Source: a virus
Taxonomy: Duplodnaviria; Caudoviricetes
Direction: 5' to 3' (one strand)
DNA: 64,000 bases
IMG/VR virus record: IMGVR_UViG_3300042870_001240
Made by a program: the position numbers and the translations under genes. Under the pieces are notes generated by a model. It ran no database searches. It was not told the origin of the DNA and was given only the letters and a program-made list of their open reading frames with translations. Shown piece by piece: positions 2-18,609 of the stretch (position 1 is its first letter; each line of letters opens with the position of its first letter).

Positions 2-151
2 TATGTAACTAAATTTACAATATACCAACCAAACATAAACATAATATTATCTAATGACTACATCGTTGAAAAGGGAGACTTACAAGTAGATTTAGGTTTT
101 GCTTTTGATAACATAGTAATGTATTCAGACGATATCTCAGGAGACAAATGA
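2..151 (+). CDS. 3' fragment of hypothetical protein
   Basis: Open frame from the window edge (YVTKF...ISGDK*); its TGA overlaps the ATG at 148 (ATGA). Confidence 0.55.
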   Translation, partial: YVTKFTIYQPNINIILSNDYIVEKGDLQVDLGFAFDNIVMYSDDISGDK

Positions 152-474
152 AATATATAATAACAGAAAATAAGTTAAACAATGTCGCGTTAAGTTGGAT
201 GAATCAAAACTTCAGTCCATACCAGTTAGAAATTTTTGAATCTGAAAAATATCCAAATTCTGTTTTTTTTAGAAAAAATGGAAAAGTTGTGATGCAACAA
301 GATAAAAAATCTAAGTTTTTTTGGTTTGATTATGATAAAATTTGGTCATTTTTTAAATTGTTTTTTGGTATGCAATACCCACAAATACAAGACGTTCTGA
401 ACTACTGGTTGGAGGATACTTTCAAATTAGAGGGTTATACACCTAATCCCTACGAATTAACATATACACTTTAG
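148..474 (+). CDS. Array-linked small protein, paralog A (108 aa)
   Basis: 73/99 identical to 18295-18609 by manual alignment up to GYTP; LEDTFKLEGYTP is encoded by repeat 408-443. Confidence 0.85.
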   Translation: MKYIITENKLNNVALSWMNQNFSPYQLEIFESEKYPNSVFFRKNGKVVMQQDKKSKFFWFDYDKIWSFFKLFFGMQYPQIQDVLNYWLEDTFKLEGYTPNPYELTYTL

Positions 475-497
475 TTGGAGAATACCCTCAAATTAAA
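408..497 (+). CRISPR. CRISPR-like mini-array A: repeat, 30-nt spacer, truncated repeat
   Basis: GTTGGAGGATACTTTCAAATTAGAGGGTTATACACC (408-443), spacer 444-473, partial repeat GTTGGAGAATACCCTCAAATTAAA (474-497). Confidence 0.65.
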
Positions 498-507
498 ATA
501 AAAAGAA

Positions 508-891
508 ATGAAATATATAATAACAGAAAATAAAATGTATAACACGTTTTCATCTTTCCTAACTTCATTAGGGTTAAAGGACGTTATGTCACATGGTAAT
601 GGTTTAGATAGTTGTTATTATCCTGTTGAGTGGTTTGAATACGACTATGATGAGGATGGGTATGAACCAGCACCTTGTTTATTCAGATACTTTAATAATG
701 GAAAAGATTACAGTGAATGGCATGGAGTAAGTGATACTTATTCAAATCAAGATTACCCGATAATTGAGTTGGATTGGGAAATGTATAAACAAATTGAGGA
801 TTTATTTGGTGAAAAAACGATTACTGAGTTTGGTCCTAAATTTTTTCAAAATGTTGTAAATCAAGAAGTTAAAACTATAGTATCAGAGTAA
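508..891 (+). CDS. Hypothetical protein with MKYIITENK N-terminus
   Basis: First 26 nt identical to the 148 gene; body unrelated; no repeat at its 3' end. Confidence 0.8.
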   Translation: MKYIITENKMYNTFSSFLTSLGLKDVMSHGNGLDSCYYPVEWFEYDYDEDGYEPAPCLFRYFNNGKDYSEWHGVSDTYSNQDYPIIELDWEMYKQIEDLFGEKTITEFGPKFFQNVVNQEVKTIVSE

Positions 892-2538
892 TCACTTACT
901 TATTTCGTAATCAACTTCTCCCAATCTATCTGAAAGAATTTCATTATAACTTGATTTATCAATATCTGGATACCACCTATCGTCAATACTAAATTCAGGT
1001 TTGTCAATTACTTCACCAATCATTTCACTAAACACACATCCTAAATCATCGTCACATCTTTCCATATAATCATCATACCATACGTCATCTATATCGTTTA
1101 AATACTTTTCCATATTAACAATTATAACAATCCCTTCATCGTCAAATTTAATTACCTCACCCAATTCCTCTACAGCTTCTTTTAATGTATCATATAACAT
1201 ATTAGAATAACTGTCTTGTTCGGCATTATTAATTGCTCCTGATATTGCACTTGTAAGGTCATGATTATCGTCATATTCCTTAATCTTATCCTCCAAATTC
1301 ATGGCATTAAATTCTTCCTCATCAAAATCAGGATTGTCTTTGGTTGCAAGTTTTTTAATTAACTCATTAATCTTTTCTTCATTTTTTTTATCACAGTAAT
1401 AATCAATTCCACTCCTCCAATCAGCATTATAATTATCCCACAAATCCGAAGTTTCACCTGCCAAGATAGTTTCAAACATTGTCACCTTTCTACTATGACC
1501 TTCCTTAGTTTTCCATTGTCTAATAACCCAATCACCTGAGACATATCTATCCAAATCATCAGGATTAATCTCCACCCTAACTTTATAATTAATTTCAGGT
1601 TTATCGATAATCCCCATATCCATTAATTTCCTTTGTAATCTTCTTGAGGAGAATAAGTCAGGTCTACTACGATATAAATCAATTATAACATCATTAGGTA
1701 AATCCGTTATCTTGAAATCTTGTTGAGATGCGTATTCAGACCCAAACTCTTGGATTAGGTAATTATTATTTTCGTCCTTAATATAGAATAATGGTAAAAT
1801 ATAATCGTGGTATTCCTCTTTTGGTTTTGAGTTCTTAGGACCTTTTAGTTGATATAGCACATTATCATTCCCAATAGCCGCGGTTAAATGACTCTTATTT
1901 AACGTATACTTCTCTCCTGGCAGTCTTTTAACCTCTCTTAAGGAAACTATAGTATTTCTATTTCCTGTTCTACCACAGTGTCCCATTCTATTACATTCTT
2001 CACTAGAGTTGTTTGTGTTTAAGTCAACCCAATAAAACCCTTCACCATTTTTATTTCTGAAATCTAAAATAATATCATGAGTGTGTGGCTCAACGTAATT
2101 AATCTTACCTTGACCAATCTGTAATGAGTCGTGCCATTCTTTGGATTTTTGAAAAAGTTCTTTCCATGTTAAATCTTTGTACTGATTCATATTACCGTTA
2201 AGCCCGACTCTAATCCAATCCATGATAGATTGTATATCATATGAGGAACTAATAATTAAATTTCTACTATTAATTTTGTTAATTAACTCATCACCTTGAT
2301 ATGGTTTGGTATACAAACTAAGATGATTCTTATTTGACACGTCTTTAAACTTATTAAACATCCACACGGCAAGAGGACCACATTTTTCATCTAAAAAAGT
2401 GGCTTGTTCGACAGATAAACCTTCTTTGTCTGTAAGAATTTTTATTTTAGACGCCTCAGAAATAAGTTCATTATCGTATATTGAATTATAATTACGAAGT
2501 GTTTTAAGAATCTCCTCGTTTAAACTTTTTAAATCCAT
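892..2538 (-). CDS. PcfJ-like domain protein with acidic C-terminus
   Basis: SKEWH...EECNRMGHCG...SLRE...YQLKGPKNSKP motifs; probable start MDLKSL at 2538 after GTATTTAT. Confidence 0.6.
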   Translation of the reverse strand: MDLKSLNEEILKTLRNYNSIYDNELISEASKIKILTDKEGLSVEQATFLDEKCGPLAVWMFNKFKDVSNKNHLSLYTKPYQGDELINKINSRNLIISSSYDIQSIMDWIRVGLNGNMNQYKDLTWKELFQKSKEWHDSLQIGQGKINYVEPHTHDIILDFRNKNGEGFYWVDLNTNNSSEECNRMGHCGRTGNRNTIVSLREVKRLPGEKYTLNKSHLTAAIGNDNVLYQLKGPKNSKPKEEYHDYILPLFYIKDENNNYLIQEFGSEYASQQDFKITDLPNDVIIDLYRSRPDLFSSRRLQRKLMDMGIIDKPEINYKVRVEINPDDLDRYVSGDWVIRQWKTKEGHSRKVTMFETILAGETSDLWDNYNADWRSGIDYYCDKKNEEKINELIKKLATKDNPDFDEEEFNAMNLEDKIKEYDDNHDLTSAISGAINNAEQDSYSNMLYDTLKEAVEELGEVIKFDDEGIVIIVNMEKYLNDIDDVWYDDYMERCDDDLGCVFSEMIGEVIDKPEFSIDDRWYPDIDKSSYNEILSDRLGEVDYEISK

Positions 2539-2623
2539 ACCAATAAATACCAAGTAATAAAATTAAATAACAGATTATTTTTTAAACAACATTATTCGTA
2601 ACTTAAGGATAATTGTTAATAAC

Positions 2624-3031
2624 CTATAAGTAGGTAGTCACGGTGTACCATCTGCGCATATTTGATAAATAATCAATCTTTATTTTGAATTGGTCATTTC
2701 TATAATAACCATCATCATACCTTGCATATCCTTTATTCAATAATACTTCCATCAATTCACTGAGGATTACTTCTTTAAAGACTACTATATACTGAAAGCA
2801 CATATTATCTGAATTTAAGTAGTATGTCTGATAATTGTTAGACTCACTAAAAAACCACATATAGTAAGTGCCATCATTATCTACAGTTGTAGTTATTTCA
2901 ATTCCCTTGTCTTTAAATCGATTCTGAATCTCAGTCTTAGATAACCCAACGTAATTTTGGCTTTTTGCTGTAAAATTTATACCAAGTAGTATAATACTAC
3001 TTAGTATAATATTTAATAATTGTTTTTTCAT
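2624..3031 (-). CDS. Secreted hypothetical protein
   Basis: Signal-peptide-like N-terminus ending AKS-Q. Confidence 0.7.
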   Translation of the reverse strand: MKKQLLNIILSSIILLGINFTAKSQNYVGLSKTEIQNRFKDKGIEITTTVDNDGTYYMWFFSESNNYQTYYLNSDNMCFQYIVVFKEVILSELMEVLLNKGYARYDDGYYRNDQFKIKIDYLSNMRRWYTVTTYL

Positions 3032-3061
3032 AATTTTATTTTTTTTTATAAATATACTAAT

Positions 3062-3520
3062 TTATTTTGACCTGTCAATTATAACATAAATAGTATCAAT
3101 TATTTTACCAGTAACTTGTGGCGTGTTTTGATTTTTACCATTAAAAACATTACCGAAATTCTTTTCTAAAACTTCGCACTTTTCTATAAAATGAGATGTT
3201 TCACCACGATTATTAAACCAATTTTTACCAAAAGTTTCGTGATAAACAAGTTTAACTTTCCATCCAAATTGAGCTGCACTATCAATTGTTTTAATCAATT
3301 CTTCTGGCTCATTGTCGTTATCTACTGAAAAATCAAATGGAACTGAACTATTCATACCTGTTTGTGTAACATTTAAATGCCCTTCGTGGCTTTTCCATAT
3401 TGCTCCACTTTTTGAGAATTGAGTTACCACCCCAATTCTTTCACCGTTTGCATAATTTTCGGAACAACTTTGTATCATCAATGTAGCCGATGCAATCGCT
3501 ATTAAAAATAATTTTTTCAT
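3062..3520 (-). CDS. Bacteroidota-type lipoprotein
   Basis: Lipobox-like MIQSC; NGERIGVVTQFSKSG...KSHEG motif. Confidence 0.65.
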   Translation of the reverse strand: MKKLFLIAIASATLMIQSCSENYANGERIGVVTQFSKSGAIWKSHEGHLNVTQTGMNSSVPFDFSVDNDNEPEELIKTIDSAAQFGWKVKLVYHETFGKNWFNNRGETSHFIEKCEVLEKNFGNVFNGKNQNTPQVTGKIIDTIYVIIDRSK

Positions 3521-3609
3521 TTACTTAAATTTTGTTTTGCCTTCCGTTTAAAATGGGTGGAAATCTGAACCCTAAAAATGCACCGCATATAACAGGTATT
3601 AATTTTATT

Positions 3610-3927
3610 TTAATACCCTTCCCCTGTTTTGTTAATAAAATCAACTCCGTTTTCTTTTGCAAACTCAGATACCAGTTGTTCAACTAAATCTTTATCCATT
3701 TTTCCATAATCAACAGAATAACCATAAACTTCGATTCCAATATCTGACCAACAAACTCGTCCTCCACCACGAACTCTCCAATCCTTTAGTTCAGGTTCTT
3801 CTTTTCTAAAATTATTTGCAACCTCTTGATGAAACTCACCGTAACCTGAACGAAATACAAATTCACCCTCGTTTTCAAGGATAACACATTTATGAACCGA
3901 ATCTTTTTTAATTATAACTTTTTCCAT
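3610..3927 (-). CDS. Janus/Ocnus (PHPT1)-like phosphohistidine phosphatase
   Basis: EFH and GGGRV...IEVYGYSVDYG resemble human PHPT1 EYH and GGGRI...IHVYGYSMAYG. Confidence 0.65.
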   Translation of the reverse strand: MEKVIIKKDSVHKCVILENEGEFVFRSGYGEFHQEVANNFRKEEPELKDWRVRGGGRVCWSDIGIEVYGYSVDYGKMDKDLVEQLVSEFAKENGVDFINKTGEGY

Positions 3928-3931
3928 AAAA

Positions 3932-3963
3932 CAAATTTACAAATTAATATTTATATTTCCAAA
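3932..3963 (-). promoter_or_regulatory. Bacteroidota sigma70-type promoter
   Basis: TTTG-N20-TAAATTTG upstream of 3927. Confidence 0.7.
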
Positions 3964-4044
3964 TATAACCCATTAAATAATTTAAACCAAATCGAAATTA
4001 TTCTTCATAATACAAAGGTATGGATTATATTTTAATTTTACAAG

Positions 4045-4053
4045 GTATTTATA
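4045..4053 (+). promoter_or_regulatory. Recurrent RTATTTAT upstream motif (putative phage late promoter), example
   Basis: Same motif lies just upstream of more than 15 starts (e.g. 5114, 17792, 21174, 26417, 33406, 42191, 61714, 63156). Confidence 0.6.
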
Positions 4054-4057
4054 TGTT

Positions 4058-4549
4058 ATGGGAAAATCTAAATTAGAAGCATTAAGTGATAGAATATTAT
4101 CTCAATTTTTTATCCAATTAAGAAAAATATATGACGAGGAGTTAAGAAATAGTCCTCATTACTCATTGGTTGAACAAGATAATTTTATTGATGCGTGTGA
4201 TACGGTATCAAGTATATTTGGGGTCGCTCCTTGTGATTATATCGACCTTGATTTTATTATCACCATGATTGATATGAATCCATCTATTAGTGAAGGCATT
4301 ATTAATAAAAGACCAACAATAGGTAACTATACTTATGAGATAGATGTTCACGAAAAGGTTTATGAAAGAGTGACTTATAAACATAAGAGTGAATCGTATA
4401 GTCCAAGTACATTAATACAAATAGCTAAAAAAATGGAGTATGAAGGTGATATAAGTGTTTGGGATGGTCAAGAAATCGATAGGGATAATTATGATTCAGA
4501 AACTATCAGTATTGACTACGATAAGAATTCAATTACTAAAATAGGTTAA
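4058..4549 (+). CDS. Hypothetical protein
   Basis: 163-aa ORF with upstream motif. Confidence 0.75.
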   Translation: MGKSKLEALSDRILSQFFIQLRKIYDEELRNSPHYSLVEQDNFIDACDTVSSIFGVAPCDYIDLDFIITMIDMNPSISEGIINKRPTIGNYTYEIDVHEKVYERVTYKHKSESYSPSTLIQIAKKMEYEGDISVWDGQEIDRDNYDSETISIDYDKNSITKIG

Positions 4550-4552
4550 TCT

Positions 4553-5086
4553 TTATTTTTTTCTTTCCGATAATTTTCTAACAATCGGTAACTGTTCTTC
4601 AACAATCACTTGATATACTTTTGGTAAATAGAAATGTTTATACCATATAAGCACATCTTCAACACCATCAAACACTTCTTTAGTCTTTAAACGGTTATAA
4701 ACATCACCATAATACCATAACTCAATTTTATCATCATCTGTTATCTCCTTATAATACTGAATTTCCACAGGTATTCCTGACTCTCCTTGCCAAAATGGTG
4801 TAGCATAAACAAAAACTTTTTCTTTTCTCTCATTGGATACAAGTATTCCGTCCCAACCAAAAGCTCCTGACATATTGTCAATAGAAATTCCGAATTCTTT
4901 ATATTGTTTAGGTAACTTTCCCTCTGACATTAATTCTATTAACACCGTATTGGCTAACCCAGTATCAATAGTTATTTCACTAATGTGAATTAACTCAACA
5001 GGATTTATACCTGCGATTTTCGAGGCATCATAAATTCCATGTGTCTCAATTAAATTTAATAACTGTTGTCGTCTTTTATCTGTCAT
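4553..5086 (-). CDS. Hypothetical protein
   Basis: 177-aa ORF; ATATTTAT upstream. Confidence 0.75.
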   Translation of the reverse strand: MTDKRRQQLLNLIETHGIYDASKIAGINPVELIHISEITIDTGLANTVLIELMSEGKLPKQYKEFGISIDNMSGAFGWDGILVSNERKEKVFVYATPFWQGESGIPVEIQYYKEITDDDKIELWYYGDVYNRLKTKEVFDGVEDVLIWYKHFYLPKVYQVIVEEQLPIVRKLSERKK

Positions 5087-5113
5087 TAATAATAAATATA
5101 AGTATTTATAGTT

Positions 5114-5770
5114 ATGAATAGACTACTTTATATATATTTTCACAAATTTTTAAAACCTTCATATGATTTTCATGGGTTAACACTTAGACCTAATTTCTTA
5201 CCTAATGAAGGACTAATACGTTGGTCTGTCGAAAACCCTCAGGATAAATCATATTACATGGAGACATTGATTGCTTTTACAGAGGAACTTTTTATTACTT
5301 TTTGTCACCTTCTTGAGGGTGAAATCGGGTCAGGTTTTTATCGTAATAATCGTAGATATGCCTGTAGTTTTGAACAAACCAATAAGTATTATTACCTTAA
5401 TAAATCGGATGACCAAAAATTATTAAACAGTATTAAACAAATTACTAAAATTGATTACAAAAATATATTTTATAGTGATGTTGAATGTACCTATGTTAAT
5501 ATTTACCCAGCAGAAGATTTTACGATAACAATTGGAATGAAGCTTTTAAATCCTCATAATGAACAACATTCCAAATTGATTAACACTGAATTATCTGAAG
5601 CTATATTTGAATTGATTGAGGATGATTTTTTTTACAGTGACTATCTATTTGATTTATTTCACCCCGTAATAAATGTCATTACAAACCTACCCTTATTGTA
5701 CGACCATACCTGGATGTTTTTTACTACTAGTGTTGATTTCAGAGATAAAAACAATATAAAAATTAAATAA
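5114..5770 (+). CDS. Hypothetical protein
   Basis: 218-aa ORF; GTATTTATA at 5102-5110. Confidence 0.75.
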   Translation: MNRLLYIYFHKFLKPSYDFHGLTLRPNFLPNEGLIRWSVENPQDKSYYMETLIAFTEELFITFCHLLEGEIGSGFYRNNRRYACSFEQTNKYYYLNKSDDQKLLNSIKQITKIDYKNIFYSDVECTYVNIYPAEDFTITIGMKLLNPHNEQHSKLINTELSEAIFELIEDDFFYSDYLFDLFHPVINVITNLPLLYDHTWMFFTTSVDFRDKNNIKIK

Positions 5771-5799
5771 TTTTAATCAATTCTTATTTCTTATAAAAC

Positions 5800-6186
5800 T
5801 TAAGAATTCAATATCGTAAAGTCAAAATCATAATCAATACAAACATGAGTTAATATTGATTCAACCTCTCTAACTAAATCTTCACCTAACTCATCCCATA
5901 TTCTTTCGTAAACATCGTCTTGTCTAAATCCATGTTCCCACATATCATCAACCCCTAAAGAAACTTTAATTGGTTGGATGTATATTGTTCCATCAAATAA
6001 ACACACAACAGGGTCATTATTTTTCCATAATGAAACTTTCTTAACCTTATATTCAATGTGAACATCAACTCGGTCATCATCACTACTTGAATAGGGCATC
6101 GAATACCAAGTGTCAAATTCATTTTTGTCCTTTAATAATTTATGAACCATTTCAATAGTTCGTTCAGTGTGTTTGTCCATTTCCAT
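5800..6186 (-). CDS. Hypothetical protein
   Basis: 128-aa ORF. Confidence 0.7.
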   Translation of the reverse strand: MEMDKHTERTIEMVHKLLKDKNEFDTWYSMPYSSSDDDRVDVHIEYKVKKVSLWKNNDPVVCLFDGTIYIQPIKVSLGVDDMWEHGFRQDDVYERIWDELGEDLVREVESILTHVCIDYDFDFTILNS

Positions 6187-6227
6187 ATTATATAAGTATT
6201 TATAAGAAACAAAAAATTATTTAAATA

Positions 6228-6620
6228 ATGACAATAGAACAAGAAATACAATCATTAAACAAGATTATTAATTCAGGTCTTATATTATCAGTATATCCAA
6301 ATGTAGACCATATTGATGTGTCTTTTGATGGGACACACCATCCATATCTTATTTATAAGATGTATTTAAAAGATAAAGACGCCACTAATAATGATTTGTA
6401 TAATGATGTCGACCCTTTTTATTTAGTTGACTATCACGTAATGAACATCATTTCAAAACTAATTCCTTTTGAACACTTACCAATCAAAGATGATGGTTAT
6501 CAACTGATTGTTTATAATGGAAGTGGTATTCCAATTTTTGATTGGGAACATGAATTAAGTGTAATGAATAGAGGTTCTTTAGGTAGAAGTGATTGGGAAC
6601 AAAGGTCTAAAAACCGATAA
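6228..6620 (+). CDS. Hypothetical protein
   Basis: 130-aa ORF; GTATTTATA upstream. Confidence 0.7.
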   Translation: MTIEQEIQSLNKIINSGLILSVYPNVDHIDVSFDGTHHPYLIYKMYLKDKDATNNDLYNDVDPFYLVDYHVMNIISKLIPFEHLPIKDDGYQLIVYNGSGIPIFDWEHELSVMNRGSLGRSDWEQRSKNR

Positions 6621-7233
6621 ACTCAGTTTTAACATATGAGACCATCCATTCATTGTCAACTAACGCAGTTTCACCTTCTAAGATTTCATCAATATGAGGA
6701 TATGAATGGTCTGTCTCAGAGTATTTATTTCCTTTTTGAAATGACTGATAACGTTCCACGGTAAATTCAATTTTGGATTCAACTTTACCTTTATTTTGTG
6801 TATATAAAAATACTTTTAAAGGTTTGACATAATTTTTTATTACTAAAGCATTCTCAATAATCTCTATTTCTGCATTAACAGGTTTAATATCTATCTCGTG
6901 AGAACCAACTTTTAATACTTTAACAGTTTTAAGATAGTTTTTTATTTTTGTGAGTAATTCTTCATTAATGTATAAAGATTCCTCGTCATTTGAAGAACGG
7001 ATAAGTGTATGGACTTCTTTTTGTATTCCCAATAATTTCTGAAATGACTCCATACTTTCATTTGCAAACCCTTTTAATGCCGCATAACTATACGACACAT
7101 CATTAGGATTAATTACCTCAAACACCATTGTTTGACTATGGTCAAACCCAAGTGGTCGTAACAAAACCCCGTTAACATTTAAAGTCCCATTAAGATATTT
7201 GGTATATAATTCTAAATACTTTTTACTTATCAT
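6607..7233 (-). CDS. Hypothetical protein
   Basis: 208-aa ORF coupled to 7230-7790. Confidence 0.75.
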   Translation of the reverse strand: MISKKYLELYTKYLNGTLNVNGVLLRPLGFDHSQTMVFEVINPNDVSYSYAALKGFANESMESFQKLLGIQKEVHTLIRSSNDEESLYINEELLTKIKNYLKTVKVLKVGSHEIDIKPVNAEIEIIENALVIKNYVKPLKVFLYTQNKGKVESKIEFTVERYQSFQKGNKYSETDHSYPHIDEILEGETALVDNEWMVSYVKTEFIGF

Positions 7234-7790
7234 CCTACATCTGACTTATAATTTATCGAGTCCATTACAAATGAAATCCCTGTTTTATCTTCAACATTAT
7301 CACTAATGTATTCATGAATACAATCTTCAATTTCACTCTCAATCTCCCAACCGTAGTCATCACTATTTCTAGCCTCTTCCAACTTATGTAAAGTTCCATC
7401 CTCAAGTAAGATTACCGTGCCGTTAATGTCATCAACCGTTACCGTAACAATAAATTGTGCTCCATCATCCTCAACATTATCAATAGTAAAATTAAATTCA
7501 TAACCACCACATTTGTTTATGGTATGTTCTTTCTTATTGAAGAACTCCATGGCGATTTCTTGAGCCTTATCTACACCAAGATATTCGGTTAACCATCTTT
7601 GGACATCGACCATTCTGATACCTGTTTGATTTTTAAGTCCGCCATGATACTGAAATCCAAATAATTTTGTCATTGTATCAGTTAATCCAGGACCAACTTT
7701 GTCCCAATATTTAAACAACATCTTTTTATAAGACTCTTGTTCTTTTACTTTATCTAATTGGTCTTCAGTAATTTTAATTCTCATATACAT
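7230..7790 (-). CDS. Hypothetical protein (ITEDQL N-terminus)
   Basis: 186-aa ORF; ATATTTAT upstream. Confidence 0.75.
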   Translation of the reverse strand: MYMRIKITEDQLDKVKEQESYKKMLFKYWDKVGPGLTDTMTKLFGFQYHGGLKNQTGIRMVDVQRWLTEYLGVDKAQEIAMEFFNKKEHTINKCGGYEFNFTIDNVEDDGAQFIVTVTVDDINGTVILLEDGTLHKLEEARNSDDYGWEIESEIEDCIHEYISDNVEDKTGISFVMDSINYKSDVG

Positions 7791-7809
7791 AAATATAAGG
7801 TTTTGAGGT

Positions 7810-8334
7810 TTAGTTCACCCCAAAAACCTTATCTAAATATACTTTCATTGAGTAACACATGTGATATTCTTTAATGTCTAAACTTTTAATGAAATCCTCA
7901 TTCTCTTTCTTATACATCTCGAACATACGACTACCTGACATCTTAGAGTATTCAACATTTGCGATTCGGTCACACATCTTAACAAATATACCGTATTTTT
8001 CTGACCTAATACCTTCATAATACTTATCATTTGCACGTTCTTTACGAGTTTTACCTTTCTCATTAGTTAAAGCGTAAACCAAATCGGCAACGTAATGACC
8101 TAACTCCGATTTAACATCATTGTAAGTAACACGAGTGTCCTCGATTAAATCGTGCCCAAAACAAGCCATTTTAACATCTTCTCGTTTTATCTCTTCAACC
8201 AAATGTTTGAATCTCTCAAATACCCCAACAACCATTCGTAAATGATATTCATATGGAAGATATTCCGCATACATGTGATTAGTATTTTTGTGTTGGGTAA
8301 TAACCCATCTTATTTTTTCTTCTGTTGATTTCAT
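7810..8334 (-). CDS. HD-domain (p)ppGpp hydrolase-like protein (Mesh1/SAH type)
   Basis: PYEYH, GHDLIEDT, VYALT, VKMCDRIAN motifs. Confidence 0.8.
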   Translation of the reverse strand: MKSTEEKIRWVITQHKNTNHMYAEYLPYEYHLRMVVGVFERFKHLVEEIKREDVKMACFGHDLIEDTRVTYNDVKSELGHYVADLVYALTNEKGKTRKERANDKYYEGIRSEKYGIFVKMCDRIANVEYSKMSGSRMFEMYKKENEDFIKSLDIKEYHMCYSMKVYLDKVFGVN

Positions 8335-8338
8335 ACTA

Positions 8339-8588: not shown

Positions 8589-8623
8589 GATATATATATT
8601 TTGGTTTGATGTTAGTTAAATAA

Positions 8624-10938: not shown

Positions 10939-11040
10939 GTTACATATAAATATACATGAAAAAGAAAGTTCATTCATAAACACAAAGATAATAAAAAACC
11001 CCCACTAAAAATAGTGAGGGTCTTGATTATTTTTTAATTT

Positions 11041-11481
11041 TTACTTTAAGAATCTTAATTTATATAAAGTCGAATTAAGTAACTTACAAACATTGTCGAT
11101 TTCATTTTGGATGTATGAATCTTTACAACAATCTCTTAAGTCTTCAACTTTACTGTATAAGTCTTTAAAATAGTTAACCGTTGTTGTGGTGTCTTTATAA
11201 TCCTCAATGTCATATTTTTTATACCCTTTAATAATACTATACTTACCTTGATAAGATTCAATTAAACCGTCAACAATATCTCCAATCTCGTCATAGTATC
11301 CACCCAATGCACTGTGTTCAGCGAATGATTTAGTTTGTAAATGTAAAGTATGTGCTTGAGTTCTTGAATGAAACAATAACGACACCATCTCAATAAAATC
11401 TTTAGTGTTTGTTTTTTGTTCGATTAGTAAACCTCGTTTGGTCACTTCTTCAAATAGTCTATCTTTAAAATCTTGGTTCAT
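11041..11481 (-). CDS. DUF5856-like ferritin-like protein
   Basis: HSRTQAHTLHLQTKSFAEHSALGGYYD...DGLIESYQG; probable start at 11481. Confidence 0.7.
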   Translation of the reverse strand: MNQDFKDRLFEEVTKRGLLIEQKTNTKDFIEMVSLLFHSRTQAHTLHLQTKSFAEHSALGGYYDEIGDIVDGLIESYQGKYSIIKGYKKYDIEDYKDTTTTVNYFKDLYSKVEDLRDCCKDSYIQNEIDNVCKLLNSTLYKLRFLK

Positions 11482-11510
11482 AATAATGTTTAACAATAAA
11501 TACCTAACAA

Positions 11511-11771
11511 TTAAGAAAAATTAATCATAAAATCATCATATATCGAAAACAATTTCATAATGTTTTTTATTTCTTTATTAATGTAATGTCGGATAATTTT
11601 TTCAGTAAACATTTTATACTCCTCAGGATTAGTTAAAGACAAAGTAATCTCTTTAATATCCCCATTAAAATTACCAACTTCAATTATATTAAACGACAAT
11701 TTTATCCCACCCTCAGATGGAATATTAAAGTAAATTGGTTTACCCCTATAGTATTTAGTGAACTGCTCCAT
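11511..11771 (-). CDS. Hypothetical protein
   Basis: 86-aa ORF. Confidence 0.6.
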   Translation of the reverse strand: MEQFTKYYRGKPIYFNIPSEGGIKLSFNIIEVGNFNGDIKEITLSLTNPEEYKMFTEKIIRHYINKEIKNIMKLFSIYDDFMINFS

Positions 11772-11775
11772 ATAA

Positions 11776-11805
11776 AAATCCCCACCTTATTTAGGATGGG
11801 GATTT
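11776..11805 (-). terminator. Intrinsic terminator
   Basis: AAATCCCCA...TGGGGATTT hairpin after the 11814 gene. Confidence 0.65.
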
Positions 11806-11813
11806 AGTTAATT

Positions 11814-13250
11814 TTATTTTGTTAATATGAATAACGAATTTTGTTTAACCACTCTTCCCAATAAATCAAAATATTTTGTAGTTCCATTATCTAACGAAAG
11901 ATGGTCAATCGATATAATATCCGAATAATCAAAATTATTATTAAAATCGATTTGTTTTAATCTATAATATATGTTAGTTATATTAGGGTATTCATATTTA
12001 TCATAAAATACATAGGTGTTTTGGAAAGAACTTGTTCCATGTCCTAAGACATATCCTACTACACCCCATTCCTCTCCATTTAATGAACGTTGTATTTCAA
12101 ATTTCCAATTATCCACTTCGGTCGCAGTTACCCATTTTAAATGATTGATATTATCTATTGACACACCATTAAAATACAACCACTTCACAGGTAATGTGTT
12201 TGGTAATACGTTTAATCTAGCAGATGTAGATGTTATTGGACTACAAGGTGAGTTTGATGCTTGGATTCTATATCTAAATCCATTCATACTATAGGAGATA
12301 GGACTAATAGTTAAAGTATCTCGTGAAATAGTATCTACGTTACTCCAACTAATTCCTGAATCGGATGAATATTGCCATATATGGTTATTTGGAGATGAAG
12401 ATATAAATCTTACAGTTGACCCATCAATTGCGGTTGTATCTATTGGATTAGTAGTAATGGTTGGGTTTGAGCGAATAGTGACGTTAAATGTAGTTGGAGT
12501 TGACCAAACACCAGTACAACCAACAACCGTTGATACCGTTCTTAAGTATTGAGTATCTGTTGTTGATATGGTTTGGGGTGATGGTAAAGAAGTACTTACC
12601 CCAACCGCTGACGATTGTAAATACGAATTGGCCGGAAAAGTGGCTACTGTAGATAAACAAGTAGGTGAAGTGTAAGTTGGAGTAGGAGAACTTGGGATTA
12701 AACACCCTGTTAATTTAATATCATCAATTCTAAACTGCAAACCAACTGTATTTGTGTTCATTCTAAACCTAATTCTTAAGTTAGCAGTTGCAGGAATAGT
12801 TCCTGTTGGTGTTATGCGAGACCATGTATTGGCGGTTCCCGCCCCTGTTGATAATGTAAATGATAGTGTGTCGTATGTTACACCATCAGTACTAACTTCT
12901 ATTTTTAAGTTAGAACCATTAGATGCCGTTGTCGTCTTTAAAATACCTAAACTCAACGATAGTGAAGTGTAGTTGGTAGTGTTAATTGTTCCAAATGTTA
13001 CGTTTGTGCCTACAGTATTTGTTATAAATGTATTTCCTTGCCCACTAGCTCCAACATACACAGATGATGGTAAAGTAGTTCTAACGTCTGCAGTTCCAGT
13101 GTAGGATAACACCCCATAATTTTGCCATCCAGTGAAGGATGAGACTGATGTTGTTGACGATGGATTACCACAGTTTTCTGTGAATATTGTTGATTGACCC
13201 ATTGATAGAAATGGGATGGTCATTAGGACCAGAATTTTAAATAACTTCAT
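11814..13250 (-). CDS. Secreted T9SS-substrate-like protein (lectin/Ig-like domains)
   Basis: Signal peptide; LPVKWLYFNG...WVTATEVDNWKFEIQRS...IYYRLKQIDF module; short YFDLLGR tail. Confidence 0.7.
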   Translation of the reverse strand: MKLFKILVLMTIPFLSMGQSTIFTENCGNPSSTTSVSSFTGWQNYGVLSYTGTADVRTTLPSSVYVGASGQGNTFITNTVGTNVTFGTINTTNYTSLSLSLGILKTTTASNGSNLKIEVSTDGVTYDTLSFTLSTGAGTANTWSRITPTGTIPATANLRIRFRMNTNTVGLQFRIDDIKLTGCLIPSSPTPTYTSPTCLSTVATFPANSYLQSSAVGVSTSLPSPQTISTTDTQYLRTVSTVVGCTGVWSTPTTFNVTIRSNPTITTNPIDTTAIDGSTVRFISSSPNNHIWQYSSDSGISWSNVDTISRDTLTISPISYSMNGFRYRIQASNSPCSPITSTSARLNVLPNTLPVKWLYFNGVSIDNINHLKWVTATEVDNWKFEIQRSLNGEEWGVVGYVLGHGTSSFQNTYVFYDKYEYPNITNIYYRLKQIDFNNNFDYSDIISIDHLSLDNGTTKYFDLLGRVVKQNSLFILTK

Positions 13251-13309
13251 TGTTTTTGTTTTAATTTTATTTTAATGTATCGAATTATTTAACCATAAAT
13301 ATTAATAGA

Positions 13310-13606
13310 TTATTTTAACGATAAAATAAACGCTAATTTGTATCCAACAAATGCTCCCAATGCGGCTGCCGCTGGAAATATCATGTATTTTCCTACTCGG
13401 GTTTCATACTTGTCTCGGTTAATAACTATACTCACAAACATATAGTATATTAGAAAATTAATCAACACTGCAATATCATATTTCATAATTATAAACACGG
13501 TAATTGTATTAGCAATAAATCCATACATGAAATTAACTGCTGACTCCTTTACCAACTCACCAACACTAGTACGAGCATCTAAAAATCTAAATTTCTTGTT
13601 TAACAT
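13310..13606 (-). CDS. Small membrane protein
   Basis: About three hydrophobic segments. Confidence 0.65.
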   Translation of the reverse strand: MLNKKFRFLDARTSVGELVKESAVNFMYGFIANTITVFIIMKYDIAVLINFLIYYMFVSIVINRDKYETRVGKYMIFPAAAALGAFVGYKLAFILSLK

Positions 13607-13860
13607 TATATTCCGTATTTTGCTGGTTCATCCTCAATATAGAACTTAGAACCTAAATTGACCCCTACTATCTTAGTATTTAGGTATTGTTTTTTAATTT
13701 CATCCTGAATATCGTTGAATGATTGTGAGTCTTTCTCGTAGTAGTCTGTGAACATAACATATAACCCTTTATCAGTATCAAGGATATTGAACTCATGACC
13801 ATCATATACTCCAGGAGTTACTATAAGAAAGTAATTTGGTTTGTCTTCGATTTTTAACAT
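13606..13860 (-). CDS. Hypothetical protein
   Basis: 84-aa ORF. Confidence 0.6.
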   Translation of the reverse strand: MLKIEDKPNYFLIVTPGVYDGHEFNILDTDKGLYVMFTDYYEKDSQSFNDIQDEIKKQYLNTKIVGVNLGSKFYIEDEPAKYGI

Positions 13861-13883
13861 ATTATTTATTTTTATTTATTTGT

Positions 13884-13955
13884 AGTCAGGACAGGATTCG
13901 AACCTATACAATAGAGCAATCGCTCAAAGCGTTTAACCAATTTCGCCACCTGACT
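13884..13955 (-). tRNA. tRNA-like element 1 (non-canonical anticodon arm)
   Basis: AGTCAGG/CCTGACT acceptor, GCG/CGC D-arm, ATAGG-TTCGAAT-CCTGT T-arm; anticodon loop 4-6 nt; no encoded CCA. Confidence 0.6.
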
Positions 13956-14032
13956 ATTTACTTGTCTTTCCAAACTGTCAACTAAATTTCTAGGTAGTGG
14001 CACCTTTACACGGCCATTAGTTCTACTTGTGA

Positions 14033-14138
14033 TGGTAGTCAGGACAGGAATCGAACCTGTAACTTCTTTGTCATACAGAGTGCCATTAGCTGTTATCTCA
14101 ACCTTGATGGTGATACGTTACCACTACGCCACCTGACT
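14033..14138 (-). tRNA. tRNA-like element 2 (expanded, ACCA end)
   Basis: Same acceptor stem, GCGT-AGTGGTA-ACGT D-arm, ACAGG-TTCGATT-CCTGT T-arm; irregular anticodon arm plus ~35-nt extra region. Confidence 0.6.
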
Positions 14139-14167
14139 ATATTTTCCTTCTGTGTTTTATCTTATAA

Positions 14168-14199
14168 CAAATATACGAACTTTATTTCGTATTTCCAAA
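14168..14199 (-). promoter_or_regulatory. Bacteroidota-type promoter for tRNA-like elements 2 and 1
   Basis: TTTG-N20-TATATTTG. Confidence 0.7.
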
Positions 14200-14203
14200 T
14201 TCT

Positions 14204-14476
14204 TTACACTTCTGAGTGATGAATATTGTGATTAATTTCTATCCAACATTTAGCCCATATTAGATTTAGTCCTAACATGAAAGAGGGATATAGACTATAT
14301 TTTAGATTTCCACTACCTATACGAAGACACATATCTTTTCTAAAGAATATGCCAAGTTTCTTAACCTTATACTCATGAACTGTAGTGTATAAGTCTCCCG
14401 GTGAGTCCCATTTGTGACGAAATACCCCTTTCACAGTTATACCGCCTAACTTGAATTTCACTATTTTTCCTGCCAT
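14204..14476 (-). CDS. Hypothetical protein
   Basis: 90-aa ORF. Confidence 0.6.
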   Translation of the reverse strand: MAGKIVKFKLGGITVKGVFRHKWDSPGDLYTTVHEYKVKKLGIFFRKDMCLRIGSGNLKYSLYPSFMLGLNLIWAKCWIEINHNIHHSEV

Positions 14477-14482
14477 GTTATT

Positions 14483-14716
14483 CTATTTAAAGTATTCATC
14501 ATAAATATCATCTGTGCTAACATTACCCCACTTTTTACCATACTTTACAAAACTAATTCCTTCCCTATGAAATTCCTCTAAAAGTTCTTTCTCCACGGAA
14601 AGCAATTGCTCAAGCTTCTCGTTGATTTCTTGAATATTCTTATCAGTTAATGTTTTTGCAGCGTTTGATTCAGTTGCGAACCAATCTCTAAATGTGGTTA
14701 TTGGTGTTTTTTTCAT
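14483..14716 (-). CDS. Hypothetical protein
   Basis: 77-aa ORF. Confidence 0.6.
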   Translation of the reverse strand: MKKTPITTFRDWFATESNAAKTLTDKNIQEINEKLEQLLSVEKELLEEFHREGISFVKYGKKWGNVSTDDIYDEYFK

Positions 14717-14751
14717 GATATATTTTTCATTTATACTTTTATTTTTTTAGT

Positions 14752-14879
14752 AGTCAGGACAGGACTTGAACCTGTGATAGTATCCATCAGCACATTGATA
14801 AAGCAGATACTCCGTTGTACTTCTGTCAGAAAGTTTTTACGTCAATGTTTCGGTGCGTGTTCCAACTCGCCACCTGACT
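14752..14879 (-). tRNA. tRNA-like element 3 (128 nt, large internal insert)
   Basis: Same acceptor stem and D/T arms; ~75 nt between D- and T-arms; TATCTTTG -7 box immediately upstream (14886-14893). Confidence 0.55.
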
Positions 14880-14963
14880 ATAATACAAAGATAATAAAAA
14901 AATTGGGGAATAAAAATAATTCTCCATTTTTTTATTTTTAATCCAAACTTTAAAACATAAAAA

Positions 14964-14985
14964 ACCCCTCTTTGTTGGAGGGGTC
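14964..14985 (-). terminator. Intrinsic terminator
   Basis: ACCCCTC...GAGGGGT with A-run. Confidence 0.6.
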
Positions 14986-15007
14986 TTAATAAGATATTTT
15001 TAATAAA

Positions 15008-15325
15008 TTACTTACCAATAATTAAATCATCAAAGTTTAATTTTCCCATACCATCATTAGATTCTTTACTGGTAAACTCATCATACATAAATGATTGAAC
15101 CACAGATGTAATACTTTGTTCCGCTTGGGCTATCTTAGTTTCCTGCCAGTCTTCAAGTTGTTCTCCGTCTTCCATTTCTTCCCACATCTTATAAGCTAAT
15201 GTCGCAATGGTGAACAACTGTTGCTTTGACATGTAAGACCCCTCTTCTTGATTTTCAGTCAAGGAATTTTTAACTCGGTTAGTTAATTTTTCCAATTGTT
15301 TTTCCGATATAATAATATTTTTCAT
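15008..15325 (-). CDS. Hypothetical phage protein (ISEKQL N-terminus)
   Basis: 105-aa ORF; ATATTTATA upstream. Confidence 0.75.
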   Translation of the reverse strand: MKNIIISEKQLEKLTNRVKNSLTENQEEGSYMSKQQLFTIATLAYKMWEEMEDGEQLEDWQETKIAQAEQSITSVVQSFMYDEFTSKESNDGMGKLNFDDLIIGK

Positions 15326-15448
15326 GTTAGTCTTTATCTATAAATATACAACAGTAACATAAAAAAGGAGACGATTTCTCATCTCCTTAATTTGGGGCCG
15401 ATAATTCAGCGAATCCACCACCTTATTTTTCTAAACAAGGAAACAAAA

Positions 15449-15682
15449 CTATTCAGAAATAAGACTTGCATTATCATTTGTAATGACGCTATCAACATTT
15501 GATTGGTTTTCAACAATATGTTCGGTTTGAGTTGGTTTTGATAAATAATCATAACCCTCTTTCAACTTAATCACCGTAAAGGCAAACATAAGAATAAGTC
15601 CTATGAAAATCAACTTAACAACTTGTTTCCAAGTTTTAAATAAGATGTATAAAATTACCGCTAAAAATATAAGAAATCCCAT
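15449..15682 (-). CDS. Small membrane protein
   Basis: Two hydrophobic segments. Confidence 0.6.
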   Translation of the reverse strand: MGFLIFLAVILYILFKTWKQVVKLIFIGLILMFAFTVIKLKEGYDYLSKPTQTEHIVENQSNVDSVITNDNASLISE

Positions 15683-15694
15683 AATTGTTTATTT

Positions 15695-15970
15695 TTATTT
15701 TGTTACTAATGCTTCTACTTTACTTTTCATGTGGTCAGCCAAACCATAACTGTCTACCGATGTTAATACGATTGAATCAACCAAGTGTTTGAATGGTATG
15801 TGTACTAAGAAGTCCACCCCATTGAAGAATGTTAAGTCGTTCTTCAGTTCCAAACATCCGTGGATTATTTTAAGGAACAATTTGAACTGTGTTCCATCCA
15901 CGAATGTTTCGTCAACCAATTTACCGAATTTCTCGTTCTCAATTCTGATGTTGTATGTTGAAGTTGTCAT
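15695..15970 (-). CDS. Hypothetical protein
   Basis: 91-aa ORF; TAAATTTG upstream. Confidence 0.7.
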   Translation of the reverse strand: MTTSTYNIRIENEKFGKLVDETFVDGTQFKLFLKIIHGCLELKNDLTFFNGVDFLVHIPFKHLVDSIVLTSVDSYGLADHMKSKVEALVTK

Positions 15971-16003
15971 ATCTATTTGATTTATTCTACAAATTTACAA
16001 AAA

Positions 16004-16774
16004 CTATTTCATATTTCCTAATGCCTCGATAACAGAATCAGCACTATTTCCTCCCATAGATACTTGAGAGATAGTGAACACGATTTTACCATCAACCTCT
16101 GCGTAGTTAAGGATAACCGCACTTCCGTTAGGATTTTTTACCACGATTTGGTTTCTTGTAGTGTTAATATTATTAACTTTGTTACCACCAAAATCAATGT
16201 CAGAATTTCTGTAACGTTTGAACGCTTCACCGAAGGCGCTCATACGAACTTCGTTATCTTTAATTCTTCGGTTATGAACATCCCACATTCCTTTAACGTA
16301 GTCCTCAACAATTGTTACAACAGGTTTACCTGTTTTGTAATAGGTCTTAGTATCATCACTACCAACTTTAACTCTTAACTTATAACCATGACTCTTACTT
16401 CTCCAACCACCCCTTGGAGTTGTTGTGTGCTCTTCAACATAAACAGTAATACGATTGTTAGACTCACCTTCAGGTAGTTCACCCTTGTAAACAATTTTAG
16501 AACTGTTATAGTTCTCGGAAATTTCCCCAATTTTAACTTGGTTATAACCAATACGGTTACCTTGAGAGTCTAATTTATAAACATTTACAGGCCAAGTTTG
16601 AATATTCTGAGTTTTAACCAACTCAAATTTATCGGAATGTTTTTGAATTTCTTTGAAGTACCTATCCCACTCAGACTCAATTTTTGTCTGTTCAGATTTG
16701 AAATTATCCGCAGTTTTTTGAGCTGAGGCGATATTGTCTTTGATGTGTTTTTGTTGGTGTTCTTTTAGGGTCAT
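16004..16774 (-). CDS. Hypothetical protein
   Basis: 256-aa ORF with host-type promoter. Confidence 0.75.
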   Translation of the reverse strand: MTLKEHQQKHIKDNIASAQKTADNFKSEQTKIESEWDRYFKEIQKHSDKFELVKTQNIQTWPVNVYKLDSQGNRIGYNQVKIGEISENYNSSKIVYKGELPEGESNNRITVYVEEHTTTPRGGWRSKSHGYKLRVKVGSDDTKTYYKTGKPVVTIVEDYVKGMWDVHNRRIKDNEVRMSAFGEAFKRYRNSDIDFGGNKVNNINTTRNQIVVKNPNGSAVILNYAEVDGKIVFTISQVSMGGNSADSVIEALGNMK

Positions 16775-16799
16775 GGTAGAAGTTTTTGTGTTTGTTTTA

Positions 16800-16831
16800 C
16801 AAATATAAGCACATTATTTTAATTGGCCAAA
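16800..16831 (-). promoter_or_regulatory. Bacteroidota-type promoter at the distal end of array B
   Basis: TTTG-N20-TATATTTG. Confidence 0.7.
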
Positions 16832-16853
16832 TTTATTTAAAGACTAAATATCC

Positions 16854-16955
16854 GGTGTTAGACCCTTCAAATTATAGGTCTCTTCCAACTATAAAGAACG
16901 CAGGTTATTATTTGAAAAAGGTGTTAGACCCTTTAAATTATAGGTCTCTTCCAAC
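16854..16955 (-). CRISPR. CRISPR-like mini-array B: two 36-nt repeats, one 30-nt spacer
   Basis: GTTGGAAGAGACCTATAATTT(A/G)AAGGGTCTAACACC at 16920-16955 and 16854-16889; spacer 16890-16919. Confidence 0.75.
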
Positions 16956-17197
16956 CAGTATGTTATAATACCCTTCATTTGTTCATATTCCAACCCAAAA
17001 AAGGATTTTAAAAACGACCAAATTTCATTGTAATTTATATAAACATACCCATTTTTTTTATCCTGATAATAATAAAATAATGGTAATCTATCTTCATTAA
17101 CATAAATTGTTCTATCACCCTTAACTATTGGTTTTAAATTACCAAATTTATCGTTAAGCCATGTTATCACGACCTTATCTAATTTATTTTTAATCAT
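16889..17197 (-). CDS. Array-linked small protein, paralog B (102 aa)
   Basis: QDKK...IWSF...FFG..Y...YWLEETYNLKGLTP shared with A and C. Confidence 0.85.
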   Translation of the reverse strand: MIKNKLDKVVITWLNDKFGNLKPIVKGDRTIYVNEDRLPLFYYYQDKKNGYVYINYNEIWSFLKSFFGLEYEQMKGIITYWLEETYNLKGLTPFSNNNLRSL

Positions 17198-17215
17198 TTT
17201 ATCTTTAATTCTTTA

Positions 17216-17641
17216 TTATATAGATTGTTTGGATTCCCTATCTAAATCTCGTAATTTAATAGAATTTCTTTTATCCCATAGTTTTTTACCTTTAGCCAAC
17301 ACAATATCAACCTTCAATAATCCCCTGTCATTCTCATATAATACATGAGGAATGATTGTATATCCCTTAACCAACTCTGATTCAAGTTTTCTTAATTGTT
17401 TTTTCTTCAATAACAATTTTTTATCGGTAGCAATATTATCATTCCCAATTCCTTGGATAAGAACCCCTTTCATATATAACTCCCCATTATTAAAATAACA
17501 GAACGAGTCAGTCATAGAGACTTTCCCTTCTCGGATTCTCTTAACCTCAACACCAGTCAATTTAATACCCGCCAAGAATGTTTCCTCAATAAAATACTCA
17601 AACTTAACTTTTTTATTCTCAATACGAACTTTTATCTTCAT
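17216..17641 (-). CDS. smpB: SsrA-binding protein SmpB
   Basis: FEYFIEETFLAGIKLTGVEVK...KKLLL...AKGKKLWDKR; probable start at 17641. Confidence 0.9.
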   Translation of the reverse strand: MKIKVRIENKKVKFEYFIEETFLAGIKLTGVEVKRIREGKVSMTDSFCYFNNGELYMKGVLIQGIGNDNIATDKKLLLKKKQLRKLESELVKGYTIIPHVLYENDRGLLKVDIVLAKGKKLWDKRNSIKLRDLDRESKQSI

Positions 17642-17791
17642 AAACACAAAGATAAATATAAAAAACAAAAAACCCTAACAAATTTTTACATTCACCAGGG
17701 TTTAATATTAACCAACTAAGAAAGGGGTCGTTGGGACTATTTAGGTTATAAATATAACAAATTTTTTAAAAAGAAAAAGATATTTATAAAT

Positions 17792-18133
17792 ATGATATTA
17801 AAAATCAACGATAACAAATTTAAAGTGATGGTAATGATGACTCAAAAAGATACTCAAAAGGGTATGATGGGTCGTGACTTTGATTCTAACTTTAATGGTA
17901 TGTTATTTCTAATGGACAAAGGTCCTCACGGTTTTTGGATGAAGGATTGTATTATCCCATTGGATATTATTTTTATTGACGGTAATACAATAACTAAAAT
18001 ACACCATAGTTGTCCTCCATGTAAATCGGAAGACTGTCCTAGTTATGTCGGAACAGGAGATACTATTTTAGAACTTAGAGGCGGTACTTGCGGGGAATTA
18101 AGTATTAAAGAGGGGGATAAGATTCTATACTAA
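17792..18133 (+). CDS. DUF192 family protein
   Basis: GMMGR...GMLF...FWMKDCIIPLDIIFID...ILELRGG. Confidence 0.85.
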   Translation: MILKINDNKFKVMVMMTQKDTQKGMMGRDFDSNFNGMLFLMDKGPHGFWMKDCIIPLDIIFIDGNTITKIHHSCPPCKSEDCPSYVGTGDTILELRGGTCGELSIKEGDKILY

Positions 18134-18349
18134 TTTGAGAGTATCCTCCAACTGGATGTAATGGAGCGAATTGCGAAGCGTGGTGTATAACCCTTTAATT
18201 TGAGAGTCTCTTCCAACTAGTCATGCTTTCCGCTGAACCGTCTTTCAGGTGTATAACCCTTTAATTTGAGAGTCTCTTCCAACTACTAACGCATTCAAGA
18301 CTGGAAATGGCTCGGTGTATAACCCTTTAATTTGAGAGTCTCTTCCAAC
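18131..18349 (-). CRISPR. CRISPR-like mini-array C: three identical 36-nt repeats, one truncated repeat, spacers of 30/30/29 nt
   Basis: GTTGGAAGAGACTCTCAAATTAAAGGGTTATACACC at 18314-18349, 18248-18283 and 18182-18217; partial repeat 18131-18152. Confidence 0.85.
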
Positions 18350-18609
18350 CAGTAACTCAGAAATTCCTGTATTTCTTGGTATTCCATACCAAAAAACGAT
18401 TCAAAAAATGACCAAATTTCATCATAATCAAACAAAAAATCTTTATTTTTTTTATCCTGCTCCATCACAACTTCTCCATTTTTTTTAAAAAAAATTGAAT
18501 TAGGATATTTTTCAGATTTAACAATTTCTAACTGGTCTAAACCAAAGTTTTTGTTCATCCAACTTAACACGACATTGTTTAACTTATTTTCCGTTATTAT
18601 ATATTTCAT
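18295..18609 (-). CDS. Array-linked small protein, paralog C (104 aa)
   Basis: LEETLKLKGYTP comes from the repeat; SHFQS* comes from spacer 1. Confidence 0.85.
   Translation of the reverse strand: MKYIITENKLNNVVLSWMNKNFGLDQLEIVKSEKYPNSIFFKKNGEVVMEQDKKNKDFLFDYDEIWSFFESFFGMEYQEIQEFLSYWLEETLKLKGYTPSHFQS

Follow-up and report, generated by a model that had tools for sequence, protein, structure and literature searches.

CRISPR-type mini-arrays whose first repeat is part of the coding sequence in a phage gene family

The window, i.e., the whole 64,000-nucleotide (nt) stretch of viral DNA analysed here (IMG/VR virus record IMGVR_UViG_3300042870_001240; Duplodnaviria, Caudoviricetes), contains three paralogous genes (A, B and C) in which the last conserved part of the coding sequence is also the first repeat of a short array of the CRISPR type. 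Conservation of this array-in-gene layout extends over a very large phage family. The arrays grow by polarised, ruler-like CRISPR-type insertion at the gene-embedded repeat, followed by selection at the level of the protein, and it is quite probable that polarised CRISPR-type integration is what built them. More tentatively, we favour a reading in which a CRISPR integrase supplied by the host would write into a mimic of a CRISPR repeat, kept up by the phage and probably serving it as a decoy.

Arrays embedded in a phage gene family

Genes A, B and C (Table 1) encode proteins that are 44-70% identical and have the motif W-L-E-x-T-x-x-L-x-G-x-T-P in common. In each gene the last 36 nt before a variable tail recur downstream with a period of 66 nt, separated by unique spacers of 29-30 nt; the repeat pattern was matched 0 times in 100 shuffles of the window. 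The original prediction, made from the letters of this DNA, had described the three loci and their shared C-terminal motif correctly, and its view that the units were duplicated locally holds as well, each array copying the repeat of its own gene. It had each gene end at the repeat, however, and this part has to be amended: all three open reading frames (ORFs) continue past the repeat into the first spacer.

Relatives were collected by protein search (198 close ones), from IMG/VR (40 loci) and from metagenomes (80 loci). A total of 114 unique modules was collected, and an array, i.e., at least one downstream unit, is present in 97 of the 112 complete ones; the scarcity of homologs followed by periodic copies of their own 3′ end, which the original prediction had named as the outcome that would speak against it, was thus not found. 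A profile search returned 1,867 family clusters at 50% identity (E <= 1e-3). Distant members have other C-terminal motifs, such as WLDEVYNLRGVTP, ILSDTTKLNVYAP and WVEEHYNLRVTTT, and each arrays its own repeat variant. The neighbours of the family protein in the ESM Atlas are all viral and the gene family looks virus-only; scans of Pfam and PHROGs gave no match for it. In the complete IMG/VR relative G001 (296 kb), whose large proteins are 62-65% identical to those of the window, 13 family members are found at dispersed sites.

Six tandem paralogs, some arrayed and some decayed, lie on one strand of G001 at 238754-242671 (loci L053/L054), a region that looks like a site of family expansion and contraction. 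Long members with 3-5 domain copies were also observed, namely P0122 (760 amino acids, aa), P0132 (588 aa) and P0123 (346 aa). At L001:3001-3500 an ORF traverses two spacers into further coding sequence, which indicates that arrays can join neighbouring paralogs in one reading frame, and some members (P0014, L027, P0158 and P0199) are read in frame through 2-5 units.

Polarised growth of the arrays

Arrays that share a spacer were compared in six cases (L001/L003, L008/L112, L070/L098, two among L093/L094/L096, and P0003 or L143 against array C of the window), and in all of them the spacer common to both arrays occupies the distal position of the longer one. Growth therefore takes place at the gene-proximal repeat, and the gene occupies the position of a leader, as had been proposed. 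The near-identical strain variant L143, which has the same gene order and identical flanks, lacks exactly 132 nt of array C, corresponding to repeat-C1-repeat-C2. Insertion at the gene-proximal repeat also predicts that the old tail of the gene is pushed to the far end of the array, behind a full repeat, and exactly this is seen in the B-type arrays of the window, L009 and L003, which all keep the tail (P)DI-stop there.

In 80 of 97 arrays the terminal repeat breaks off at one constant position, after about 24 nt (..AAnTTAAA), which matches the ending of array-less forms of 95 aa (...LKLK-stop). Such forms can arise when the first repeat recombines with the terminal one, but this does not account for the origin of the truncated repeat itself. 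The gene has T-tracts between -42 and -59 and an A-tract between -97 and -104, an apparent likeness to poly-A and poly-T leader motifs mentioned in a preprint.

A repeat with two coding functions

The family protein was modelled with AlphaFold2 (predicted local distance difference test score 89.8) as a compact alpha/beta fold of three helices and a sheet, about 100 aa in size. Residues 87-99, of which W87 and L88 are invariant, are those encoded by the repeat; in the model they close helix 3, make a turn and begin the last beta-strand. This strand is predicted to span residues 98-102, that is, the T and P of the motif plus three residues encoded by the spacer. No match to a solved structure was found (best Foldseek E = 0.1; best VIA Z = 4.3), and the fold searches returned only uncharacterised phage proteins; nothing suggests that the small protein is an RNA-guided effector, one of the roles offered for it in the original prediction.

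Among 140 spacers not one has an in-frame stop in codons 1-3, where 22.6 +/- 3.6 are expected and no permutation came close, which matches the need of the strand for three spacer-coded residues. In the out-of-frame triplets stops occur at expected rates, and in spacer codons 5-9 at the rate of chance. Tails of fewer than 4 residues do not occur in the family. The filter is also present in spacers that are now internal, which supports independently that each of them entered next to the gene; every spacer has thus passed a filter at the protein level. The swapping of C-terminal tails, one of the models put forward initially, is accordingly real as a consequence of array growth, since each insertion replaces the tail and the translational filter then acts on it.

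The repeat is constrained at synonymous sites too. Leu88 is encoded by TTG in 96% of the modules (background use 14%) and Glu90 by GAG in 82% (background use 21%), codon 95 ends in G, and Thr98 is ACA in 78 of 79 cases; some codons just upstream of the repeat are constrained as well. Through these rare and nearly fixed codons, selection on synonymous sites maintains the resemblance of the repeat to that of type VI-B systems. All repeats ending in ACACC are arrayed (63/63) and all 15 array-less members have other 3′ ends, some of which are nonetheless arrayed elsewhere.

Four of the five window spacers (A1, B1, C1 and C2) end in TA, which together with the first G of the next repeat gives an in-frame TAG. 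This ending occurs in only 9 of 55 spacers of the window and its relatives and may be peculiar to this phage. Recoding of TAG was considered and rejected, because an in-frame TGA is present in array C as well and many spacers shift the reading frame by their length.

Length and origin of the spacers

Arrays hold 1-3 spacers. The unique spacers number 142, of which 136 are 29-32 nt long; a length of 30 nt is the commonest, and 29, 31 and 32 nt also occur often. Only 76 of the 142 have a length that is a multiple of 3, so that 46% break the reading frame, and spacers lack the codon periodicity that phage genes have (chi-square p = 0.48), which argues that they are not evolved coding cassettes.

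The spacers are unrelated to one another and appear to be mostly of non-phage origin. Their mean guanine-cytosine (GC) content is 36.0%, while 30-mers drawn at random from the phage genomes have 30-31% (z = 6-7), and none of the 142 matched the 774 kb of related phage DNA that includes the complete G001. The possibility, raised with the original prediction, that spacers are duplication debris from phage gene ends is not borne out by this search. In GenBank phages nothing matched the array C region with its three spacers significantly, nor was an exact copy of spacer C1 or C2 present in IMG/VR, both being limited databases.

One spacer of the 142 could be traced. The 32-nt spacer at L083:1497-1528 is a sense copy of bacterial 23S ribosomal RNA (rRNA), with 27 of 28 nt matching a Flavobacteriaceae genome (E = 9e-10), 26 of 28 the 23S gene of Escherichia coli, and 29 of 29 a 2.7-kb record inside an E. 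coli assembly. One ribosomal DNA (rDNA) spacer in 142 roughly equals the share of rRNA operons in a bacterial chromosome. Its protospacer has GTTA at -9 to -6, compared with TTTA in Flavobacterium columnare, a single case that is no evidence either way on a protospacer-adjacent motif (PAM).

Resemblance to type VI-B repeats and search for CRISPR-associated genes

In gene sense, the repeat is identical at 26 of 37 positions to a type VI-B repeat read in the sense of cas13b, a comparison that rests on the one natural repeat of Riemerella anatipestifer (PMC5006608). The alignment scores z = 4.6-6.5 for all three repeats of the window and for three of the four relatives compared, and 2.9 for L027, the most divergent; the match in this sense is better than that in the antisense orientation or to a type II-C repeat.

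No CRISPR-associated (cas) gene adjoins the loci, nor does an integrase or reverse transcriptase gene, in agreement with the original prediction (the neighbours are SmpB, DUF192 and a DHH-like gene), and a scan of 19 window ORFs found none either. The complete G001 has neither Cas1 nor Cas2, and in it ten ORFs of 800-1,110 aa had no NCBIfam Cas match and resemble structural or replication proteins or remain unmatched. Rfam returned no CRISPR-DR or other RNA family for the arrays at E <= 10, and a search of the window and G001 for an anti-repeat like that of a trans-activating CRISPR RNA (ungapped, G-U pairs allowed) gave nothing above chance.

Proposed mechanism and points against it

In the proposed mechanism, a CRISPR integrase would insert mostly non-phage DNA of 30 +/- 1 nt at the gene-proximal repeat and duplicate that repeat. 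Each insertion would replace the C-terminal tail of the protein, and the survivors would be those that begin with at least three sense codons. The absence of Cas1 and Cas2 from G001 and of Cas among the scanned window ORFs makes Cas1-Cas2 of the host the likeliest source of this integrase, and there is a precedent in F. columnare, where a VI-B array receives its spacers in trans from Cas1-Cas2 of the II-C system, roughly half of the newly acquired ones coming from the host chromosome (PMC8092290).

The phage may use its 7-13 repeat mimics per genome as decoys for the CRISPR machinery of the host, competing for the loading of Cas13b, soaking up spacer integration, or both. On this view the RNA may be processed, and most spacers would be by-products rather than an arsenal of guides. 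Under Cas13b rules a CRISPR RNA (crRNA) consists of a spacer followed by a full repeat, and because the terminal repeats are mostly truncated, 49 of 97 modules contain no such unit, which favours repeat mimicry over guides. An extra crRNA from the first repeat can weaken Cas13b defence (PMC13187072) and phage repeat mimics work as RNA anti-CRISPRs (PMC10651486); together these reports make a decoy function plausible, if on the whole somewhat doubtful.

Several findings weigh against this explanation. RNAalifold found no conserved pairs in the repeats and single folds were no better than those of shuffles; 63 of the array-bearing repeats end in CACC and not in CAAC. An exact-pattern scan of 185,579 species genomes found no cellular array with this repeat, its sole match being a 1.8-kb phage-like contig binned with a Flavobacterium metagenome-assembled genome, and when 151 Flavobacteriaceae genomes were searched with a sequence model of the repeat, no array came up; both searches are limited in that the host is not identified and that arrays assemble poorly in metagenome-assembled genomes. 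Canonical VI-B-type arrays were absent from the 401 Flavobacteriaceae and 251 Flavobacteriales genomes sampled, so that Cas13b would be rare in these groups if the hosts belong to them. Paralogs within one genome carry differing repeat variants, the constant cut point of the terminal repeats is unexplained by simple integration, and the module counts given above are not phylogenetically independent.

Alternative explanations

Two bolder readings can be named: the loci could be a natural system for writing into a protein, in which a CRISPR integrase routinely puts short stretches of captured DNA into the coding end, the repeat is kept for that purpose and an abundant, multi-copy phage protein acquires new C-terminal segments, or they could be the first RNA or DNA mimic aimed at type VI systems and CRISPR adaptation. 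We regard these readings as rather unlikely.

It is unlikely that the arrays are cotranscribed with the gene to give crRNAs that a host effector, Cas13b or another, uses on behalf of the phage against rival phages or host transcripts. The downstream repeats do remain identical to the in-gene copy, the VI-B-like repeat is in sense orientation, and there are known cases of viral mini-arrays, one or two spacers long, that exploit the Cas proteins of the host (PMC11656645). However, half of the modules lack a spacer plus full repeat under Cas13b rules, which leaves the guide part of the original prediction unsupported; moreover, the searches described above found no protospacers in related phage DNA, none for array C in GenBank phages and no exact IMG/VR match for C1 and C2, the traced L083 spacer has the same sense as the 23S rRNA and cannot pair with it, and the repeats have no conserved hairpin.

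We hold it to be similarly improbable that CRISPR-type insertion has been co-opted for diversifying the protein, with new tails or 22-residue cassettes being added to a multi-copy and possibly virion-packaged product and the downstream units left as fossils. The translational filter on every spacer, the in-frame reading through several units in some members, the minimum tail length and the many paralogs per genome would all fit. Yet the filter is limited to the first 3-4 codons, which fits completion of the last strand better than diversity of tails, nearly half of the spacer lengths break the frame, spacers have no codon periodicity, and the rare codons fixed in the repeat point to a function at the nucleic-acid level.

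A self-contained phage system, in which an unrecognised phage integrase or effector, possibly the small protein itself, reads the repeat and uses the spacers, appears quite improbable. Such a system would account for the failure to find a cellular counterpart of the repeat, for the codivergence of protein and repeat across the family and for the several repeat variants in one genome, and many large phage ORFs are unannotated; against it stand the absence of Cas1/Cas2 from G001, the structural-like, replication-like or unmatched nature of the ten large ORFs scanned there, and a small protein unlike any nuclease or RNA-binding fold.

Finally, a modular repeat protein or slippage and recombination debris with a fortuitous 36+30 geometry can be given very little credence: the 66-nt period does equal 22 codons and some arrays are entirely open in frame, but many spacers measure 29, 31 or 32 nt, they resemble neither one another nor the phage and have no coding periodicity, one of them is bacterial 23S rDNA, growth is polarised, and the similarity to the VI-B repeat is significant.

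Genomic context of the loci

With a GC content of about 31%, the window is AT-rich, and it seems to belong to a jumbo myovirus. Among its products are SmpB, a DUF192 protein, an SbcC-like protein, a SprB-repeat protein and one transfer RNA (tRNA). The DNA of the window is present in at least 18 lake-water metagenome runs, and only 5-6% of sampled window words were recovered in two lake metatranscriptome runs, too little to judge expression by. The features of the three loci are listed in Table 1.

Table 1. Positions of genes, repeats and spacers of loci A, B and C in the window.
Feature	Position	Strand	Remarks
Family gene A (108 aa)	148-474	+	ORF spans the repeat and the whole spacer; stop TAG, its G being the first base of the truncated repeat
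In-gene repeat A (36 nt)	408-443	+	Encodes (W)LEDTFKLEGYTP
Spacer A1 (30 nt)	444-473	+	27% GC
Truncated terminal repeat A	474-497	+	First 24 nt retained, ending AAATTAAA then ATAA
Family gene B (102 aa)	16889-17197	-	
In-gene repeat B	16920-16955	-	
Spacer B1 (30 nt)	16890-16919	-	23% GC
Second repeat B	16854-16889	-	Full, differing at one position (TTA to TTG); the old tail (P)DI-stop lies displaced behind it
Family gene C (104 aa)	18295-18609	-	TGA stop within spacer C1
In-gene repeat C	18314-18349	-	
Spacer C1 (30 nt)	18284-18313	-	43% GC; missing in strain variant L143
Repeat 2 of C	18248-18283	-	Identical to the in-gene copy
Spacer C2 (30 nt)	18218-18247	-	47% GC; missing in strain variant L143
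Repeat 3 of C	18182-18217	-	Identical to the in-gene copy
Spacer C3 (29 nt)	18153-18181	-	48% GC; oldest; common to L143 and protein P0003
Truncated terminal repeat C (23 nt)	18130-18152	-	Overlaps the stop codon of the DUF192 gene

Two genes lie between loci B and C: a phage-encoded SmpB homolog (17216-17668; Pfam E = 3e-40) and the DUF192 gene (17792-18133), which is convergent to array C. Close to locus A, an unrelated neighbouring ORF at 508-891 (127 aa) starts with MKYIITENK like genes A and C, a likeness that is also seen at the DNA level between 148-181 and 508-541 (repeat family D11). On the minus strand at 13869-14773 there are three elements with a common tRNA-like 3′ end (repeat family D5); two of the three, one of them with a 45-nt insertion, were classified as tRNA by Rfam, and ARAGORN reported tRNA-Gln at 13882-13955 only.

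Further along the window, Pro/Thr-rich tandem repeats were found at 57321-57853 within a 660-aa protein, 30-nt tandem repeats at 59726-59815 within an 844-aa protein, and SprB repeats in a 471-aa protein at 61741-63156. All three appear to be fibre or adhesin proteins, and they suggest a host among the Bacteroidota.

Comparison with known systems and significance

Type VI-B arrays have the same geometry of 36-nt repeats and 30-nt spacers (Smargon et al., bioRxiv 10.1101/092577; PMC8092290). The VI-B and phage repeats alike start with GTTGG and have AGGGT and ACA.C blocks near the 3′ end. VI-B arrays, too, have no cas1/cas2 of their own; they are filled in trans and acquire many spacers from the host. 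Unlike VI-B arrays, those described here are phage-borne, have no cas13b among the scanned window ORFs, and have a first repeat that is coding sequence; their CACC 3′ end breaks the GUUG/CAAC closing stem, and they have neither a poly-U loop nor a conserved hairpin. They also differ in holding only 1-3 spacers per array and in occurring as several repeat variants per genome.

Viral mini-arrays are likewise Cas-less, with one or two spacers, and are thought to depend on host Cas proteins; their repeats are identical to those of the host and their spacers target related viruses (PMC11656645). The phage arrays differ from them in that the repeat is gene-embedded and translated, that no host counterpart was found, and that no spacer matches the 774 kb of related phage DNA searched. 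We know of no viral mini-array that lies inside a coding sequence. Off-target integration by Cas1-Cas2, reportedly described as 'neo-CRISPR' by Nivala et al. in 2018, is said to duplicate the local sequence of the insertion site as a 'repeat', at sites that can be intragenic. Such events are sporadic, whereas the site described here is conserved and under selection across more than 1,800 clusters.

Racr, RNA anti-CRISPRs built from solitary repeat units (PMC10651486), and Cracr, viral regulators resembling crRNAs (bioRxiv 10.1101/2024.10.29.618823), are cas-less repeat mimics of phages, often in multiple copies, that compete for Cas proteins. They are small non-coding RNAs with promoters of their own, whereas here the mimic is the 3′ end of a messenger RNA, is translated and gains spacers. 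The Racr survey, the largest on viral repeat mimics, includes every CRISPR type except type VI (PMC10651486). Cas-less viral mini-arrays and repeat mimics as such are therefore already known; a CRISPR repeat that is coding sequence, the growth of an array inside a gene, a translational filter on spacers and a type VI-like phage mimic appear to be new, and the literature searched contains no description of arrays embedded in, and translated with, a phage gene.

Phages of this group are common in lake metagenomes. If it is Cas1-Cas2 of the host that writes, the loci would be a record of the host DNA acquired in the course of infection, and may counter adaptation or Cas13b. Either way, integration into a defined target that is not a CRISPR array is directly testable, and the family offers a natural example of dual-coding constraint.

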